Shown piece after piece: positions 5,650 to 53,271 of a DNA stretch of 64,000 nt. The stretch is from a phage, in the sequence record PZ212788.1, one strand, 5' to 3'. The notes below the pieces were generated by a model, which worked only from the letters and a program-made list of their open reading frames with translations, ran no database searches and was not told the DNA's origin. The position numbers and the translations under genes were made by a program. The stretch's first letter is position 1, and every line of letters starts with the position of its first letter.

Positions 5650-5680
5650 GCCCTCGCTTCGGCGGGGGCTTTTTGTTTGT
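5650..5680 (+). terminator. Rho-independent terminator
   Basis: GCCCTCGC-TTCG-GCGGGGGC stem-loop followed by TTTTTGTTTGT. Confidence 0.8.
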
Positions 5681-5681
5681 A

Positions 5682-5710
5682 TTGCGTATTAACTCAAAAT
5701 CTGGTAAAAT
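5682..5710 (+). promoter_or_regulatory. Sigma70-type promoter
   Basis: -35 TTGCGT, 17-nt spacer, -10 TAAAAT (TGG immediately upstream); about 30 nt before ATG 5742. Confidence 0.55.
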
Positions 5711-5741
5711 AGCTATCATGATTGTTTAACCTGGAGGCACA

Positions 5742-11149: not shown

Positions 11150-11157
11150 CCTTTAAA

Positions 11158-11186
11158 GCCCCGCTTCGGCGGGGTTTATTTTTATG
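11158..11186 (+). terminator. Rho-independent terminator
   Basis: GCCCCGC-TTCG-GCGGGG stem-loop followed by TTTATTTTTAT. Confidence 0.8.
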
Positions 11187-11192
11187 CTCAGA

Positions 11193-11221
11193 TTGACTAT
11201 TGTTACAAAATTTGGTAAAAT
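11193..11221 (+). promoter_or_regulatory. Sigma70-type promoter
   Basis: -35 TTGACT, 17-nt spacer, -10 TAAAAT preceded by TGG. Confidence 0.6.
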
Positions 11222-11254
11222 ACCTTGTAGAGATTTTCATACCGGAGGAGTGAC

Positions 11255-12756: not shown

Positions 12757-13443
12757 ATGGCAGAGATTAAGTCGGATGTTAACCACATCCACACTCTGCC
12801 AGATTTTGTTCAGGGAGGTCTTGACTACCTGCCTGGAGATTTTCTGGCTGAGAAGGTTAATTTAGTCACATTCTTAACCGTATACCTTAAAAGGTTGGAG
12901 GATGTTGATAAGATGCTGGTAGGTTTGGCTGAAGGAAGATTGCTTAACAATGCCAGCGGAAGATACCTTGACGAAGTTGGTAATCAACTTGGTATTCTTA
13001 GGAATGGACTTTCAGATGCTGATTTTCGTGCCACACTAATTATTCAGCAGGCCGCAGCATCAAGGGGCGGGACTCGCGAAGATGTCATCTCCACCTTGCG
13101 ACAATTGTTCGGAAGAGACAATTTCGATACGTGGAAAGGAGACAACTTCAGGTTTGACATAAATATTAGAAAAACTTGCTTTGACATATTGCAGTCTATC
13201 GATCAGATCTTAGATATGCTACCATTGCCTTGTCATTTGCGTCTTACAGAATCGCAAGGGCAAGCTTTTGGTTTTGAAGGGGACTCTACAGCTCTTGGCT
13301 TCGGATCAGTATGGGAAGAAAACCAGTTTGGAGTTGGTGGGCTGGCTACTTTGCTGTATGTTCCTGACGTAAGACCTGATTGGGACACCACAACCATTTA
13401 TTGTGAAAGTATTACAGTAAACGCAACTAGACAGGAGGGTTAA
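12757..13443 (+). CDS. Baseplate/tail protein, hypothetical (228 aa)
   Basis: Follows baseplate J-like gene; stop overlaps next start. Confidence 0.4.
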   Translation: MAEIKSDVNHIHTLPDFVQGGLDYLPGDFLAEKVNLVTFLTVYLKRLEDVDKMLVGLAEGRLLNNASGRYLDEVGNQLGILRNGLSDADFRATLIIQQAAASRGGTREDVISTLRQLFGRDNFDTWKGDNFRFDINIRKTCFDILQSIDQILDMLPLPCHLRLTESQGQAFGFEGDSTALGFGSVWEENQFGVGGLATLLYVPDVRPDWDTTTIYCESITVNATRQEG

Positions 13444-15515
13444 TGGCAACAGCTGTTTTTAAACCTTACCGTGATTACTCTACAATGGCTGCACGGTTTC
13501 ATTACCGAACAGTTCAGGATACTGCCGTTCCTGGTAGGGATTATGATCATGTTGAGGGCGATGTAACTATCCCAGTTGGGGCAACCAGTATTGAGATCCC
13601 CGTGGAAATTGTTGACAAATTACCCAACAGGTTGCCAAGAAGCTTCTTTATGGAGTTTTCATCAAAATCTCAAGGGGTGATGATTGGAACACAAAGGGCG
13701 AAATGTACAATAGTTTCAGATGAGAATCTTGACAGGATATCTTGGGATACTGTTGAGGAGAGAATGTTTCACCCAAGATATTGGGTTACAACCACTCAGC
13801 AGACTGAAAGTACCTGTATTGTTGCAGATAACAACTGTTGTATTAACCGTTTAGTGTCAAGAACATATGGAGGTATGGCTGGGTGCATTTGGGAAACAGT
13901 TGACAAGTATGACCATTTCGGTATTGGGTTTGATGATCACTATGAGATGAGAAACACCAAGCTTTGGTTCAGAATGTCAATAACCAATGCCAGCAACTTC
14001 TCCACCCCTGAAAAGATGATTATGACTGTAGACCTTGTTGATGGCACAATCATCTATGTTCCTTTAGCTCAATATGCTGTCAGCATCTCAGAGGATAAGA
14101 ATGTTGCAGAGATTCATATTGATTTCGAGGACTGCGTCGGGATGGATCAGAACAACAACATGATGGGTGTTGATCCTCGACAGGTGAGAAGGATTTTAAT
14201 ACCGCTTATGCCTAAAGACTGGGTAAGTAATAGCACAGACCCGAGAACGGAAAATGTAGAGTGTGAGTTGCGCCTAGATCTGCTCCAGCCAGACACAGGC
14301 TGGAAAATGATGCAACTTAACAATATTCAGGTTAAAGAGCACGACGTTGGGATCTGCACCGCATATGACGATATGTGGAACGTATCTCCTTTAAGGGTGT
14401 TGAACAATATCAAGCGTCTGGGCTATACCGGAACCATAAACCATTATGTTGGTATGAGTCATTATTATGACTACACATGGTCAGGAACCCAATGGTCTAT
14501 AAACAGAACAGGGGCGCTAAACGCTGCAGCTTATAAATGGCATGATGATTTTATGTACAATGCCAAACGACATAACTTCGACGTTATGCAATCTGTAAGT
14601 TTTGAGCTTTTCAGCGATGCCTGCCCGTTGGAATGGACCCAAAGAGACTGGAACGATAACTACGCTAAAACAGGGTATACACCCTGTAGCTACCTCCTGT
14701 CTCCAACCATTGAAGAGGGTATGAATTTCCTTACTGCAGTATTTAAGAATTTTGCATCAGCCGCTATGAGAAACAACCTGCCAGTGATTATGCAGGTTGG
14801 TGAACCGTGGTGGTGGTACAATACCGATACTCGTAGACCTTGTATTTATGATTACCCTACAAAGCAGGCGTTTTATGATGAGACAGGTGAGTATGCATTA
14901 GATATTGGGACTATTGACGATCCTAAAACTGGCGGTGTTTACGACAAGTATGTAGCATTTTGTCGTGGTAAGCTTGGCGCTCGTATTGCGGCTATTTCAA
15001 AGGCAATAAAGGCACACGCTGCATCAGCTCAGATGACAGCTTTGCTGTTTTTCCCAACCATCATGGAAACCGAGCTTACGCAAAAGCTGAACCTTGCTGA
15101 CCAATATAAAAAGGAAGCAGGTGCTCTTGATTTCTTCTGCACCGAGTGCTACGATTGGGTGATGCAGGGAGGTATTGAAAAGGCAAAAGAGTCTGTAAAC
15201 ATACCTATCGTTAAGTTAGGTTGGCAACCGTCTGAAATACAATACCTTGCAGGGTTCGTTCCTAGTAAAGAGCTTGCTCCGGTATATGGCTACGACCCAA
15301 CCAGGAATTACCAAGAATTTTTATGGAGATGTATCTGCGGAAACATGGCAACCATAGAGTATAGATACCCTGAGGTAAAACAGTATGTGTGGGCATACCC
15401 GCAAGTAATGTCTGACAGCATCACTGTTACAGCCAGAGATTCTACCGTGCTTCATATGGGGCAGGTTGCTCTGAAAGGGTATGTAGAAGATGTTGTCCCT
15501 CCAGACTTCTCATAA
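13443..15515 (+). CDS. Tail fiber / tailspike-like protein (690 aa)
   Basis: Large Trp/Tyr-rich protein in fiber cluster; possible carbohydrate-active domain, unverified. Confidence 0.4.
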   Translation: MATAVFKPYRDYSTMAARFHYRTVQDTAVPGRDYDHVEGDVTIPVGATSIEIPVEIVDKLPNRLPRSFFMEFSSKSQGVMIGTQRAKCTIVSDENLDRISWDTVEERMFHPRYWVTTTQQTESTCIVADNNCCINRLVSRTYGGMAGCIWETVDKYDHFGIGFDDHYEMRNTKLWFRMSITNASNFSTPEKMIMTVDLVDGTIIYVPLAQYAVSISEDKNVAEIHIDFEDCVGMDQNNNMMGVDPRQVRRILIPLMPKDWVSNSTDPRTENVECELRLDLLQPDTGWKMMQLNNIQVKEHDVGICTAYDDMWNVSPLRVLNNIKRLGYTGTINHYVGMSHYYDYTWSGTQWSINRTGALNAAAYKWHDDFMYNAKRHNFDVMQSVSFELFSDACPLEWTQRDWNDNYAKTGYTPCSYLLSPTIEEGMNFLTAVFKNFASAAMRNNLPVIMQVGEPWWWYNTDTRRPCIYDYPTKQAFYDETGEYALDIGTIDDPKTGGVYDKYVAFCRGKLGARIAAISKAIKAHAASAQMTALLFFPTIMETELTQKLNLADQYKKEAGALDFFCTECYDWVMQGGIEKAKESVNIPIVKLGWQPSEIQYLAGFVPSKELAPVYGYDPTRNYQEFLWRCICGNMATIEYRYPEVKQYVWAYPQVMSDSITVTARDSTVLHMGQVALKGYVEDVVPPDFS

Positions 15516-15527
15516 TCAGGAGATAAA

Positions 15528-16568
15528 ATGTCAAAACCTAGTTTTCCATTAGAGATTTGGGCAGAGGAGGATCAGGTTCTGCCTAACACCCACAGACAGA
15601 ACAGGCTACGCCCGATTGATGATTTGTGGAGAAAAGGTTGGGATCTTGGTCAAAAGCCATCCTGTGAAGAACTTAACTATATTTTCAATATGCTCGGAAC
15701 TTGGGCAAAATACATTGCTGACGAGCAGATCCCCGCTCAAGAAGGCCGTTATCTGGTACGTGATAATAACTTGAGCGATCTTTTGAACATCCCTGTTGCC
15801 CGTAGAAACCTTGGGATTATCACTAAGGAAGAGGCAGACGCCAGGTATGTAAAAGTTACAGGTGATACAATGACAGGCCCCTTGGGGTTGCAACGTATCA
15901 ACTTTAAAGCTGCCGAGACAGATAAGGCTTGGATAGAGACAACTATTGGCCCAGATAAGACAACTCTCGACTTTGGGTTAAGTGATAATACCGGGTCGTT
16001 TGATGATGGTGGTACATCTACAGTAGATGCGTTTCGTTGGAGATTCCAGCCAACTCAGCCGGATATTAATCCAGAGTTCACTTTGATGTACCTTAACGCG
16101 ATCACGGCTAATCGTGCGCTGTTGAAAGTGGTAGGCAATGTTGAAGTTGTCGATAACATGAGGTGCAATAACCTTACTATCAGCAATACAGCAACATTCA
16201 CCAACTGTAATGTGGCTAGTCAGTTGACGGCTGGGTCAGTATATGTTAATGGTGGTGCAAGTTGTGACAGTATGGTTGTAAGAAGCCAGCACTGTGTTGT
16301 CGGTAACAGAAATGTGGTGCGCTCCGTGAATGGAGTGACGGCTAACGGTAACGGTGATGTAACGATCACTATCCCGCAGACAGGTGTGCAAGACATCAGA
16401 ATCGGTGCAAGACTTGTGGACGGCGTTTCTGAATCTCCAATCCGCAACGGCTACGTTGTCACAGGCTGGCATTTCGGTGACAAAAAAGAGATGCGTGGTT
16501 CAACCTACTGGGCAGGACCTTTACAAAAACTTGTAAATGGTCAATGGATCACTGTTAATTATGCATAG
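15528..16568 (+). CDS. Receptor-binding tail fiber protein, paralog A (346 aa)
   Basis: RBS AGGAGA; paralogous to 17583-18626 (shared NAITANRA, GNRNVVRSVNG, C-terminal KLVNGQWIT); followed by Tfa chaperone gene. Confidence 0.55.
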   Translation: MSKPSFPLEIWAEEDQVLPNTHRQNRLRPIDDLWRKGWDLGQKPSCEELNYIFNMLGTWAKYIADEQIPAQEGRYLVRDNNLSDLLNIPVARRNLGIITKEEADARYVKVTGDTMTGPLGLQRINFKAAETDKAWIETTIGPDKTTLDFGLSDNTGSFDDGGTSTVDAFRWRFQPTQPDINPEFTLMYLNAITANRALLKVVGNVEVVDNMRCNNLTISNTATFTNCNVASQLTAGSVYVNGGASCDSMVVRSQHCVVGNRNVVRSVNGVTANGNGDVTITIPQTGVQDIRIGARLVDGVSESPIRNGYVVTGWHFGDKKEMRGSTYWAGPLQKLVNGQWITVNYA

Positions 16569-16582
16569 ATCGGAGGACTAGC

Positions 16583-17167
16583 ATGAAAATACTTCAAGAG
16601 TTTAAACTTTACCAACCGGGATCTGGCGAATACCACTCCAACAAGGAAACCAAGGAGCTGACCCCTCAAGAGGTCGAGGATTACACCGCATACACTGGGT
16701 ATTTTTTACGTAATGATGATGGTGATTGGTATGTGCAGTCACGAACATTACGACAAGAAAATCCAGGGTGTATCTTCCTACTTGTTGACGAGAAGGGAAT
16801 TCTTAAGACATCTACAGAAGAACCTGATGCCTTATGGCCTGCTCCAGGTCTTCGTGTGGTTATCGCCAAAAAAGAAGAGGTACCAGAAAACATTATGCTT
16901 CACCACGACGCTTTGCGTTTAGTTGGTGATGAATTTGTCACAGACAATGAATTCTTTGTTCAACAGGCAGAGGGTGTCATAGAGACAGAACTTGCTTGGG
17001 CTACTGCTAGAATTGGTGCCTATCAAGACATGATTGACCTTGAATATGATCTTACTGATGACCAGAAACGTAACATCAGAGATTTGAAAATGTACAGGGT
17101 AAAACTTCTTGAAATAGATACATCTAAAGCCCCTGACATTTTCTTCCCGGAGCGACCTACCCTCTAA
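16583..17167 (+). CDS. Tail fiber assembly chaperone (Tfa family)
   Basis: C-terminal KMYRVKLLEIDTSKAPDIFFPERP matches the conserved Tfa C-terminal signature (YRV..L...DTS.APDI.WP). Confidence 0.7.
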   Translation: MKILQEFKLYQPGSGEYHSNKETKELTPQEVEDYTAYTGYFLRNDDGDWYVQSRTLRQENPGCIFLLVDEKGILKTSTEEPDALWPAPGLRVVIAKKEEVPENIMLHHDALRLVGDEFVTDNEFFVQQAEGVIETELAWATARIGAYQDMIDLEYDLTDDQKRNIRDLKMYRVKLLEIDTSKAPDIFFPERPTL

Positions 17168-17178
17168 GAGGAGGTGTT

Positions 17179-17493
17179 GTGGAGTTGGATTTGGCGGCAT
17201 TGTACGGTATCTGCATGGGTACCGTTGTCCCGATCTGTGTATGGGCTTTCAACCAGTGGCACACCAAATGGAAAGGCATTTCCAAGAGGTTGGATGAGCT
17301 GGAGAAAGACCTCATCTTAGTGAAAAACAGTATGGTTACAAAAGATAGACTTGATTCCGTTATCGAGACTCGGTTAAGCAAGCTAGAGGCCGATATTAAC
17401 GACCTTAAGCAGGATGTCAGGACAGATGTCTCCGGCATCCGAGCTGATGTACAAAAGATTTTGCACATGCTCGTAGAGCATAGTAAAAGGTAA
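17179..17493 (+). CDS. Membrane-anchored coiled-coil protein (104 aa)
   Basis: GTG start with RBS GAGGAGG; N-terminal hydrophobic segment LAALYGICMGTVVPICVWAF then heptad-rich region. Confidence 0.4.
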   Translation: MELDLAALYGICMGTVVPICVWAFNQWHTKWKGISKRLDELEKDLILVKNSMVTKDRLDSVIETRLSKLEADINDLKQDVRTDVSGIRADVQKILHMLVEHSKR

Positions 17494-17502
17494 ACAAAGG
17501 TC

Positions 17503-17536
17503 AGAACGGAAAGGACTCCGTTCTTGCATTTTGTTC
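17503..17536 (+). terminator. Rho-independent terminator
   Basis: GAACGGA-AAGGAC-TCCGTTC stem-loop followed by TTGCATTTTGTTC. Confidence 0.6.
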
Positions 17537-17552
17537 TCTAAAGTGTTAAAAT
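17524..17552 (+). promoter_or_regulatory. Sigma70-type promoter for fiber paralog B
   Basis: -35 TTGCAT, 17-nt spacer, -10 TAAAAT; overlaps terminator 3' arm. Confidence 0.55.
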
Positions 17553-17582
17553 AGTCCTAAGGAATTTTCTCAGGAGAACGTG

Positions 17583-18626
17583 ATGACTAAACCAGTTATC
17601 CCTCTTGATATTTGGGCCAATCAGGATGTTGTGCTTGAAAATACGGGAGAGTTGAATAAGTCTCAACCAAAAAAAGAAGAGAGATTGAAAGGTTGGGATA
17701 TGACACAAAGAATGGCATGTGAAGTTGTTAACTTTGAACTTCACATGCTTTCTGCGTGGTTGAAGCATTTAACAGAAGATGTTGTCCCAGGATGGGATAA
17801 TAGATTCTTAAAGGTCACTAATAATCTAGCAGACGTTCCAGACAAAGCTGCTGCACGTCAAGTTCTCAATGTATACTCACCTGAAGAAATGGACGATCTA
17901 TATGTTGACAAGTCTGGAGACATAATGACTCAGACTCAAACTTTAGGTCTCCAAAGAATCGAGTTTGCATCTGCGTCAACAGACAGTGCGGCAATATATA
18001 CCACCATAACGCCAGACAAGACGACGATGGATTTCTGGATTATGGACAACATCGGTGGTGCTGACGGCACAGACCTTGATGATCCTTCTCACCAAATAGA
18101 CGGGTTCCGTTGGAGATTTCAACCTTCTGGTGGGCAGCCTGTGTTTTCGGCTATGAAGCTCAATGCTATAACTGCCAACCGTGCAAGACTGGCTATCCAA
18201 GGAAATCTTGAATGCAACGATGCAAAAAGTTCCTCTGCAAATGCCAATGCGGTCACGATACCAAGAGCCACTGTTAACGGACAACAATCCTGCGGAAGCG
18301 CTCAAATAGGTGGAAGAGTTGATTGTAACGATGAAACCGTTAGAGGCCAATATGCAACCGTTGGTGGAAGAAACGTGGTCCGCAGGGTAAACGGTAACAG
18401 CGCAGACGGTAGTGGTAACCTTACTGTCCCTATGCCCAGTAGAGGGGTTGACGATGTAAGGATAGCAAACCGTTTCAAAACCACCTACAGAGAGTCAAGA
18501 GTCTACCCTGGACATGTGATGTGCTCTGGTAACTACGCTTATAAACACCCTTATCAAGGTGATTACTGGACAGGTGCTATCCAAAAACTTGTAAACGGTC
18601 AATGGATCACTATATCTTATGCTTAA
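17583..18626 (+). CDS. Receptor-binding tail fiber protein, paralog B (347 aa)
   Basis: ATG 17583 with RBS AGGAGA; paralog of 15528-16568; last 30 nt nearly identical to paralog A 3' end. Confidence 0.55.
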   Translation: MTKPVIPLDIWANQDVVLENTGELNKSQPKKEERLKGWDMTQRMACEVVNFELHMLSAWLKHLTEDVVPGWDNRFLKVTNNLADVPDKAAARQVLNVYSPEEMDDLYVDKSGDIMTQTQTLGLQRIEFASASTDSAAIYTTITPDKTTMDFWIMDNIGGADGTDLDDPSHQIDGFRWRFQPSGGQPVFSAMKLNAITANRARLAIQGNLECNDAKSSSANANAVTIPRATVNGQQSCGSAQIGGRVDCNDETVRGQYATVGGRNVVRRVNGNSADGSGNLTVPMPSRGVDDVRIANRFKTTYRESRVYPGHVMCSGNYAYKHPYQGDYWTGAIQKLVNGQWITISYA

Positions 18627-18637
18627 AAAGAGGGTAA

Positions 18638-18904
18638 ATGAAACTAACTCAGTTTTTATGGGGACTGGTTGCGGCATCTGATGACCCTACGAAAGTATCC
18701 CAATCTAAGCTATGGTCGAACATAGGCATGGCGGTGATGACTGGGGTGTTTATTCATATGGGGTATAATGATACGCTTCCTGAATGGTATGCGTGGATAT
18801 ATGCACCTTCAGTAGCCTGCCCCCAGCTTATTAGCAAATTCATCTCGCTCCGGTGGGGTTGCCAGCACCCTGACCACGTTAAAAACGAAGAGCAAAAAGC
18901 TTAA
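18638..18904 (+). CDS. Small hydrophobic protein (88 aa)
   Basis: RBS AGAGGG; hydrophobic core IGMAVMTGVFIHMGY; sits where a fiber chaperone or accessory gene would be expected. Confidence 0.35.
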   Translation: MKLTQFLWGLVAASDDPTKVSQSKLWSNIGMAVMTGVFIHMGYNDTLPEWYAWIYAPSVACPQLISKFISLRWGCQHPDHVKNEEQKA

Positions 18905-53198: not shown

Positions 53199-53227
53199 TT
53201 GTAATTTACAGAAGGGGATGCTAAAAT
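53199..53227 (+). promoter_or_regulatory. Sigma70-type promoter
   Basis: -35 TTGTAA, 17-nt spacer, -10 TAAAAT. Confidence 0.5.
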
Positions 53228-53271
53228 AGTGTCTCCTTCTATGTTGTTCAAATAAAATCGGAGATTCCATA

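Follow-up and report, generated by a model that had tools for sequence, protein, structure and literature searches.

The window analysed here, a stretch of 64,000 nt from the phage sequence record PZ212788.1, belongs to a Vequintavirus (an rV5-like coliphage) and showed 99% nucleotide identity with several isolates; rV5 itself was 98.3% identical, with gene order and lengths alike. Five genes corresponding, from 5' to 3', to rV5 gp33, gp32, gp31, gp30 and gp29 were studied, together with the signals lying between them:

15528..16568, + strand: short tail fibre paralog A (rV5 gp33 ortholog), 346 aa; ORF, phrog_4465, E 1.8e-171
16524..16553, + strand: patch in A (QKLVNGQWIT), one partner of a putative gene-conversion tract
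16583..17167, + strand: tail fibre assembly chaperone (rV5 gp32), 194 aa; PF02413 Caudo_TAP, E 9e-12; phrog_136, E 2e-36
17179..17493, + strand: protein with N-terminal TM helix and coiled coil (rV5 gp31), 104 aa; phrog_5345, unknown function
17503..17535, + strand: intrinsic-terminator-like hairpin with T-rich tail; scan hit, stem 17503-17510 / 17517-24
17531..17567, + strand: late-promoter-like element; exact match to rV5 P030 (Table S4C of PMC3606486)
17583..18626, + strand: short tail fibre paralog B (rV5 gp30 ortholog), 347 aa; ORF, phrog_4465, E 7.5e-166
18582..18611, + strand: patch in B (QKLVNGQWIT), the other partner of the putative gene-conversion tract
18638..18904, + strand: hydrophobic membrane protein (rV5 gp29), 88 aa; phrog_1322

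The whole cassette was present in 114 of 114 full-length records, always in one fixed arrangement, and other relatives were found to have a single fibre. A scan of IMG/VR with paralog A gave just 5 loci, all of them from close relatives. The locus is the same as that described in rV5 (Kropinski et al., PMC3606486; PMC8594841), with no difference in kind, and the short-tail-fibre module found here, with its two old, intact fibre paralogs and its one assembly chaperone, had been described before. The duplication was reported in the rV5 paper of 2013 (PMC3606486) and in the BASEL collection of 2021 (PMC8594841), as were a fibre-fibre identity of 42% and the late promoter before gp30; the latter work also describes both paralogs and their homology to Mu GpS/GpU. 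As the duplication, this identity, the idea of two chemotypes, the detection in virions and the promoter have all been published, the finding as it was first stated from the sequence alone is known. Published accounts of the module appear to make no mention of the presumed conversion patch, of the apparent replacement of a gene for a protein with four transmembrane segments (4-TM) or of a sister clade with homogenised tips, nor, as far as we could see, of the strong purifying selection on both copies and the compensatory changes in the hairpin. The duplication itself is textbook for the genus; what may be added here (3' conversion, exchangeable tips, replacement of a membrane-protein gene) sharpens testable questions and leaves the overall picture unchanged.

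Genes and signals of the module

The gene identities proposed from the letters alone, namely two fibre paralogs, a Tfa chaperone, membrane proteins and a terminator with a promoter, proved to be right. Both A and B matched end to end the profile of the Vequintavirinae short tail fibres (phrog_4465; RBPseg class TC1), and with each other they shared 43% amino acid identity (BLASTP E 1e-95) and 51% nucleotide identity in a codon alignment. The start of paralog B was placed at ATG 17583 because the upstream GTG at 17580 reads GCG in rV5 and Murica. The DrSchubert ortholog of paralog A is annotated as 'short tail fiber protein'. Paralog A is laid out as a baseplate-wedge anchor (residues 1-110), a shaft (111-285) and a Mu gpS-type tip (286-346). 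Its residues 1-108 matched the short tail fibre (STF) of phage phiTE (9cuy) with an E value of 1.4e-19 and residues 1-79 of B did so with 3.7e-8, the family profile giving 1.1e-32 with the phiTE N-terminus. At the other end, residues 286-343 of A matched positions 440-501 of Mu gpS (5yvq; whole-sequence E 1.7e-6), and the family profile recovered on the tip both Mu gpS (E 8.7e-10) and Mu S' (E 3.8e-5). Paralog B alone gave no significant match to Mu gpS in a single-sequence search; its tip aligns to that of A with 45% identity, the terminal motif being common to both. An AlphaFold2 monomer of B built on an alignment of 10 sequences reached a pLDDT of 32.7 and a pTM of 0.19, too low for the model to be of use.

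Paralog A lies directly after the baseplate wedge genes and is followed immediately by gp32, the sole Tfa of the module for its two fibres, which scored 45.7 bits against PF02413 (cutoff 22.1). This agrees with the Tfa-type chaperone expected downstream of A. Neither Mu U nor any other chaperone chain was matched by this protein in a PDB sequence search. The product of gp31, predicted beforehand to be a membrane-anchored coiled-coil protein, does carry a hydrophobic helix at its N-terminus as well as a coiled-coil stretch; its gene comes after that of Tfa in every Vequintavirinae relative examined, and orthologs from PVP-SE1, TH18, GAP31 and NDO71 were 31-32% identical. A role of gp31 as an i-spanin was considered and set aside as unsupported, the ORF list containing no embedded or adjacent lipoprotein ORF. 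Values of dN/dS were 0.049 for gp32 and 0.031 for gp31. Paralog B sits 2 kb beyond A, after gp31 and without a Tfa of its own, and is followed by the small hydrophobic protein that had been anticipated there, gp29, which is 51-53% identical to the proteins at the same place in the same four phages. Searched against Pfam and NCBIfam, gp31, gp29 and the relatives' 4-TM protein yielded weak coiled-coil noise and nothing more. That 4-TM membrane-protein gene occupies, in single-fibre relatives, the slot that here holds B with its hairpin and promoter. Horizontal acquisition of B was also considered and set aside: no close B-like single-copy gene was found outside the two-fibre clades, the best being that of Enterobacter phage FENT2 (43.7%).

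The hairpin before B (17503-17524) had a folding energy of -17.5 kcal/mol (z = -4.4). Across five lineages, 4 of its 8 pairs had changed on both sides in a compensatory manner, and 87.5% of the alignment cells were paired, against 28-56% when the partner was slid. It was weaker in the lineages L017 (-6.0 kcal/mol, z = -2.4) and L020 (-9.8 kcal/mol, z = -0.9). The annotation of a 'terminator' in Murica under the match was set aside, as it sits inside the coding sequence of the gp30 ortholog and is not intergenic. The putative promoter core, TGTTAAAATA at 17544-17553, corresponds to the motif TggTAaAAtA, placed 30-45 nt ahead of a late gene, and is conserved in L017 and L020. Four occurrences of this motif were found in the window against 0.63 expected, all of them intergenic and on the + strand. 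Paralog B has the terminator-like and promoter-like elements that the sequence-only reading had assigned to it; this punctuation is not special to B, since like pairs occur at 5660/5702 and 11156/11213.

The most probable reading, to which we give a probability of about 0.8, is that of a Vequintavirus short-tail-fibre module with two anciently duplicated Mu gpS-type fibres, a shared Tfa and a patch kept alike by conversion. Each fibre would consist of an N-terminal baseplate-wedge anchor, a shaft and a C-terminal receptor-binding tip of about 60 aa, and the receptor would be the LPS core, by analogy and from published host genetics. Both fibres would be late genes, A being read through from the baseplate genes and B being transcribed from its own late promoter behind the hairpin, a punctuation that recurs along the late region. 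The chaperone gp32, encoded after A, would fold both fibres starting from their C-termini, while occasional gene conversion between the copies would maintain the 30-nt identity, covering the terminal motif QK.VNG.W, which is conserved as far as Mu gpS. Of this reading, the gene identities and homologies, the selection on both copies, the synteny, the covariation of the hairpin and the concerted behaviour of the patch were demonstrated. We infer the use of one Tfa by both fibres, and B might fold without gp32; the manner in which the two would share the baseplate is deduced in the same way.

Receptor tips and baseplate anchors

As common coliphages of broad host range, the rV5-like phages find use against pathogenic E. 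coli, and these short fibres are credited with their terminal receptor step. Whether the two fibres stand for two LPS-core specificities or for two structural positions, and whether one chaperone serves both, bears on host-range engineering. The tips were the most conserved part of the fibres between lineages (92-93%). In Vequintavirus proper the A and B tips, each strongly conserved, differ at 55% of their positions, and for this reason dual receptor specificity, suggested by the sequence-only reading and proposed in the rV5 paper as two LPS chemotypes recognised by two fibres (PMC3606486), is plausible in this group, the tips presumably binding different LPS-core epitopes. Host genetics in K-12 suggests that there is one terminal receptor, namely the first outer-core glucose, with no hint of a second (PMC8594841, PMC7229145).

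The sister clade formed by L020, L022 and L023 presents another picture. There, the A and B tips were 84-90% identical at the amino acid level (80% at the nucleotide level in L020) and had genome-specific residues common to both copies, whereas the N-terminal anchor and the shaft stayed A-type or B-type, with 37-39% and 45-50% identity, respectively. This clade therefore has two paralogs and one tip type, and dual specificity cannot be the sole reason for the two copies. An alternative is that structural non-equivalence, in baseplate site or partner or in geometry, and not a pair of receptors is what maintains the two fibres, the tip being an exchangeable module that is perhaps alike on both. 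We consider this a serious contender, although its chances are below even. Besides the sister clade, it is favoured by the difference between the anchors of A and B, which holds in all lineages (A-type and B-type N-termini were 37-40% identical in three lineages, compared with 58-87% between orthologs), and by the role of the anchor in the phiTE STF, where it makes the contact with wedge protein 1 (PMC11972413). The same N-terminal identities speak for an old duplication. However, the strongly conserved and different tips of Vequintavirus proper fit two specificities, and there is no structure with two distinct STF sites, phi92 and phiTE having one STF per wedge. In cryo-EM maps of two Vequintavirus phages, Bas49 and Bas54, STF density was seen at 7-9 Å (PMC12143355), as one density class in which the paralogs cannot be told apart.

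The patch near the 3' ends

The segments 16524-16553 of A and 18582-18611 of B were alike at 29 of 30 nt. The final 30 nt of the two genes had been said to be nearly identical; the match stands, but the patch is not literally final, spanning codons -14 to -5 with 12 coding nt and the stop codon lying 3' of it. It was the best 10-codon window of the A/B alignment, with 9 of 10 codons identical compared with 39% same-codon use elsewhere. With the codon usage of the late genes of the window, the probability of sharing at least 9 of 10 codons given the same amino acids was 0.002, and that of sharing all 10, as observed in rV5, Murica and DrSchubert, was 1.2e-4.

Comparison of lineages indicated that the patch has evolved in concert between A and B. 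Differences within a genome were 0-3 nt, against 3-5 nt between orthologs, and the patch grouped by genome lineage and not by paralog type. In addition, L017-L019 had CTG, GTC and CAG in both paralogs where the window has CTT, GTA and CAA, that is, three shared synonymous changes, for which simulated independent change gave P = 0.0045. Gene conversion between A and B is the best explanation of the near-identity of the patch. These data, together with the homogenised tips of the sister clade, support the recombination-prone conserved 3' segment that had been postulated.

The same identity could have arisen without recombination, from protein-level constraint on the terminal strand plus chance sharing of codons. 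The motif [LI]Q[KY].[VIL][ND]G.W was indeed kept in all orthologs, in Mu gpS and in the phiTE STF, and in the L020 clade the two copies share no more than 4 of the 13 codons for the same terminal peptide. Nevertheless, constraint is an improbable explanation in view of the low probabilities of the codon sharing and of the synonymous changes made in both paralogs of the L017 lineage, and also because the decapeptide QKLVNGQWIT, common to A and B, was absent from all single-copy orthologs compared. The case for conversion comes from a tract of 30 nt and a few lineages, over which synonymous changes made in parallel, or selection acting on the nucleotides themselves, retain some probability.

Gene conversion and the non-equivalence of the fibres might also be combined. 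We advance, tentatively, that the two are non-equivalent baseplate fibres whose anchors have long been kept apart and whose tips and folding-nucleation strand are shuffled by within-genome conversion. If this were true, a single Tfa could serve both fibres, the phage would have a built-in means of transferring a tip that works well between its two fibre positions, and the L020 clade would have one kind of tip where Vequintavirus proper has two.

Retention of paralog B and related systems

The dN/dS values of 0.017 for A and 0.057 for B revealed strong purifying selection on both copies. Paralog B was intact (347 aa) in 9 of 9 aligned genomes, and covered over 100% of its length in every Vequintavirus record listed; three lineages of the sister clade have also kept it, with 351-354 aa. 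Moreover, gp30, gp32 and gp33 are listed among the proteins of rV5 virions detected by mass spectrometry (PMC3606486); no tryptic peptides of these three were found in Table S5 of that work, so their presence in virions rests on its main text. It is very unlikely that B is a duplicate that is redundant or in decay, or that its product is non-structural; this is largely ruled out by its selection, its intactness, its conserved promoter and the report of gp30 in virions, despite its lack of a chaperone gene and the smaller number of records with at least 99% amino acid identity (10 for B and 101 for A).

The sequence-only reading had also suggested a switchable specificity, which was not supported, since A and B lie on the same (+) strand, both in the late direction and without flanking inverted repeats, and both proteins are reported in virions (PMC3606486). 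A DNA rearrangement of the Mu G segment kind, expressing one or the other fibre, is least likely of all and is refuted by the layout of the genes: it could be suspected from the tip homologous to Mu S/S', the chaperone of the lambda gpK/Tfa family (PF02413), which PMC8594841 relates to Mu GpU, and the direct repeat at the fibre 3' ends, but recombination between direct repeats would delete Tfa, gp31 and B instead of switching fibres, the arrangement never varied among the full-length records, and the inverted repeats of the cassette were only 14-18 nt (78-93%) and flanked nothing sensible.

The two-fibre, one-Tfa module nevertheless resembles S/U and S'/U' on the invertible G segment of Mu (PDB 5yvq, 8ju3) in its homologous C-terminal tip, in the family and downstream place of the chaperone, and in having two alternative tips in one phage. 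The chaperone of Mu remains on the virion (PMC9608196); for gp32, presence in rV5 virions is likewise reported (PMC3606486). In contrast to Mu, the rV5-like module has no invertible segment or invertase signature, expresses two complete genes together, where Mu has a constant part and two variable parts that alternate, has a single chaperone where Mu has one per fibre, and carries an anchor of the Vequintavirinae type.

Regarding other baseplate fibres, the N-terminal 100 aa or so of the module's fibres are homologous to the segment of the phiTE STF (PDB 9cuy/9mjn; residues 3-92) that binds wedge protein 1, and phi92 gp147 ('fiber III'), a downward-pointing fibre proposed to mediate stable adsorption, aligns with the fibre over its full length. 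Unlike the present module, phiTE and phi92 have a single fibre copy; that of phiTE is longer (554 aa) and is proposed by its authors to contact flagella and not LPS, phiTE being LPS-independent. T4 gp12 is a functional analogue, being attached to the baseplate and making adsorption irreversible by binding the LPS core, and differs in its chaperone (gp57A), tip fold and deployment. An HHpred similarity to T4 gp12 was reported in 2013 (PMC3606486); it was not reproduced by our PDB sequence and profile searches, which returned no T4 gp12 chain, the limits being E <= 1 for single sequences and E <= 0.1 for the profile. Finally, ORF31 of Salmonella phage S144 (Loughboroughvirus) bears a Mu gpS-type tip, as in this module, on an unrelated baseplate anchor, and S144 has one fibre and two Tfa genes where the module has two fibres and one Tfa. 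The tips of such 52-kb myophages shared about 58-60% identity with paralog A over its residues 287-344 (PMC7432712).

The short tail fibre module of rV5-like phages

At least 80% of the query region was found in one piece in 114 phage records (94.5–99.3% identity), all from the genus Vequintavirus (rV5-like myophages), and Escherichia phages A6-1, naswa, magaca and DrSchubert matched it over its full length at 99.3%. Some 16–21 'Campylobacter phage' records among MG065635–MG065689 (host C. jejuni) are 98–100% identical to the E. coli Vequintavirus cassette, and their host label looks doubtful. The five ORFs were assigned to rV5 orthologs from gene order and length.

Genes of the fibre module in the window
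15528–16568: paralog A, short tail fibre, gp33 ortholog, 346 aa
16583–17167: fibre assembly chaperone Tfa, gp32 ortholog, 194 aa
17179–17493: gp31 ortholog, 104 aa
17583–18626: paralog B, short tail fibre, gp30 ortholog, 347 aa
18638–18904: gp29 ortholog, 88 aa

For paralog B the ORF finder gave GTG 17580 as start; rV5 and Murica have GCG there, and the conserved start is ATG 17583. The module is preceded by genes for a Baseplate_J protein, a baseplate protein and a 690-aa protein, and followed by two more fibre genes. Calx-beta and non-contractile tail sheath domains, both N-terminal and TIM-barrel (PF23844, PF23845), occur in the 690-aa protein (13443–15515), and the DrSchubert annotation calls it a lateral tail fibre that bears glycosidase and deacetylase domains; its gene lies upstream of A in Vequintavirus and TH18 and is absent at that place in PVP-SE1, GAP31 and NDO71.

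The sequence-only reading had described two diverged fibre paralogs, and their products indeed share 43% of their amino acids (E 1e-95), with 51% identity at the nucleotide level. The accompanying genes were also as it had proposed: the chaperone after A matched PF02413 (45.7 bits, cutoff 22.1), gp31 has a coiled-coil region and a hydrophobic N-terminus, and gp29 after B is small and hydrophobic. In searches of solved structures, the N-terminus of A matched the phiTE short tail fibre (E 1.4e-19), its tip residues 286–343 matched Mu gpS 440–501, and B matched the phiTE fibre (E 3.7e-8). A family profile built from seven members matched phiTE (1.1e-32), Mu S (8.7e-10) and Mu S' (3.8e-5), and T4 gp12 gave no match in these homology tests. 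The terminal motif [LI]Q[KY].[VIL][ND]G.W is common to all orthologs, Mu gpS and the phiTE fibre.

The fibre duplication is known biology, since it already appears in published papers. Two paralogs without allelic variation have been described, with one fibre copy in phi92-like phages and Phapecoctavirus and with homology of the fibres to Mu GpS and of the chaperone to GpU (PMC8594841). Density of this fibre class was seen at 7–9 Å by cryo-EM in two Vequintavirus phages (PMC12143355), and in phi92 the homologous protein, gp147, forms fibre III, which points downward (PMC13450770). The present analysis therefore confirms the observation, supports its interpretation in part and is an incremental addition to a known subject.

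The repeated segment near the fibre 3' ends

Two more groups with two fibres came up when B was used as a protein query. In contigs L017–L019, A and B are 87 and 78% identical to those of the window and gene order is unchanged; in a sister clade (L020, L022 and L023) the values fall to about 72 and 50%.

Segments 16524–16553 and 18582–18611 differ by one base, as had been noticed, and make up the core of the region's strongest direct repeat. They are not the final 30 nt of the genes: the segment encodes QKLVNGQWIT, and four further codons separate it from the stop. The same codon is used at 9 of its 10 positions, against 39% of identical residues elsewhere, and all ten are shared in rV5, Murica and DrSchubert. 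With codon frequencies taken from ten of the window's late genes, the probability of at least nine shared codons is 0.002 and of all ten 1.2e-4, so the identity exceeds what protein conservation would produce.

In L017 and L019 the segment reads CAAAAACTGGTCAATGGTCAGTGGATCAC(G/T) in both paralogs, while the A copy of L018 still has CTT for leucine. Relative to the window, the L017 lineage carries the synonymous changes CTT to CTG, GTA to GTC and CAA to CAG in A and B alike. Segments within one genome are 0–3 bases apart and orthologous segments of two lineages 3–5, whereas whole genes reverse this pattern (orthologs differ by 25–30%, paralogs by about 49%). The immediate flanks of the segment differ between the copies. 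When four independent synonymous changes per copy were simulated, only 0.45% of trials left the copies no more than one difference apart. Since the segment evolves in concert within genomes, unlike its flanks and the whole genes, these patterns indicate short-tract gene conversion.

In the sister clade few codons are shared among the last 15 (4/13), which disfavours a functional nucleotide element in the segment and favours sporadic conversion. There the whole B tip is of the A type: it matches the A tip encoded in the same genome at 84–90% (80% of nucleotides in L020) and the window B tip at only 32–37%, and genome-specific tip residues occur in both copies (S, P and E in L022; G, A and K in L020). 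To judge from its sequence, this homogenisation of the whole tip shows the same process as gene conversion on a larger scale, and the suggestion of a recombination-prone conserved 3' segment is thus borne out.

Origin of paralog B and its upstream punctuation

Comparison of copy number among relatives found both single-fibre and two-fibre lineages. The single-fibre order (PVP-SE1, GAP31, TH18, Klebsiella phage NDO71 and one metagenomic contig) is fibre, Tfa, gp31-like, a 157-aa protein with four predicted membrane helices, gp29-like and next fibre; in NDO71 the four-helix gene is annotated shorter (123 aa).

Four-helix gene between the gp31-like and gp29-like genes of related phage loci
L002: 5997–6470
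L004: 6020–6493
L005: 5961–6434
L021: 7958–8431

Exactly this slot (window 17494–18626) is taken in Vequintavirus by B together with its hairpin and promoter, and no homolog of the four-helix protein was found anywhere in the 64-kb window. This protein carries a precomputed Pfam assignment, PF26221 (Phage_phiTE_239). A is nearer to the single-copy orthologs (47–51%) than to B (44%), and no close relative of B was found outside the two-fibre clades, which argues for an old duplication or for acquisition of B from an unsampled relative.

The small membrane proteins conserved inside the module (window 17179–17493 and 18638–18904) have no assigned function. The gp31-like protein (membrane helix plus coiled coil) lies directly 3' of Tfa in every Vequintavirinae relative examined. 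In the phi92-like phage alia a similarly built protein occupies that position (L003: 5555–5896); tblastn found no match for it in the window, and the gp29-like protein of alia is encoded upstream of the wedge gene. The gp29-like proteins of the sister clade (118–126 aa; L020: 7076–7432, L022: 5067–5447, L023: 5076–5456) have an extra hydrophilic C-terminal tail, containing RYSGTGYSRYSDDRYSDNKYSD in L020.

A scan found a hairpin with a T-rich tail at 17503–17524 (−17.5 kcal/mol, z = −4.4). Across five lineages, 87.5% of cells kept pairing, against 28–56% with the partner slid, and both sides had changed in 4 of 8 pairs; the hairpin is weaker in L017 and L020. The promoter core TG(T/C)TAAAATA is conserved in all lineages, and published late promoter P030 corresponds exactly to window 17531–17567 (Table S4C of PMC3606486). 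Motif TGNTAAAATA occurs four times in the window (0.63 expected), each copy 30–45 nt ahead of a start codon and two directly after strong hairpin terminators.

Window intervals that each contain motif TGNTAAAATA
5660–5711, + strand, intergenic
11156–11222, + strand, intergenic
17503–17553, + strand, intergenic
53219–53228, + strand, intergenic

These occurrences suggest that terminator-then-late-promoter units regularly punctuate the late region. B does have the terminator-like hairpin and promoter sequence attributed to it but, as the motif recurs likewise elsewhere, they would be the standard late-region division of the phage and not specific to B.

Retention and possible roles of the two fibres

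Nine Vequintavirus genomes gave dN/dS values of 0.017 (A), 0.057 (B), 0.049 (Tfa) and 0.031 (gp31). Within the genus B is more variable, protein identity of at least 99% being found in 10 records for B and 101 for A. The tips are the best-conserved part of both fibres (92–93% between the window and a diverged lineage). Judged by these values neither copy is decaying, and both gp30 and gp33, with gp32, were among the virion-detected proteins of rV5 (PMC3606486).

Both fibres would be expressed late. By analogy with Mu (PMC9608196), Tfa would bind the distal fibre and start C-terminal trimer folding; one Tfa would probably serve both fibres, and the shared terminal strand may be part of what it needs. 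The N-terminal domains would attach the fibres to the baseplate wedge, as in the phiTE homolog, whose first 90 residues bind wedge protein 1 (PMC11972413). Binding of the tips to the LPS core, whose first outer-core glucose these phages require (PMC8594841; PMC7229145), would then commit the particle to contraction. In Vequintavirus proper, two LPS-core epitopes may be recognised by the two tips.

A serious rival is that both fibres are kept for a structural difference between their baseplate positions, because the sister clade retains two fibres though their tips are alike. Anchors split into an A type and a B type, only 37–40% identical, in all these lineages, so the fibres have long been kept distinct at the baseplate end. 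Switchable specificity, also proposed from the sequence, did not survive: Mu has a switch-type fibre arrangement, whereas the anatomy of this region excludes one. The search with B returned no comparable outside matches for its tip; that of A (16383–16565, residues 287–345) is about 58–61% identical to fibre tips of unrelated phages, namely 150-kb Phapecoctavirus-like and 52-kb myophages.
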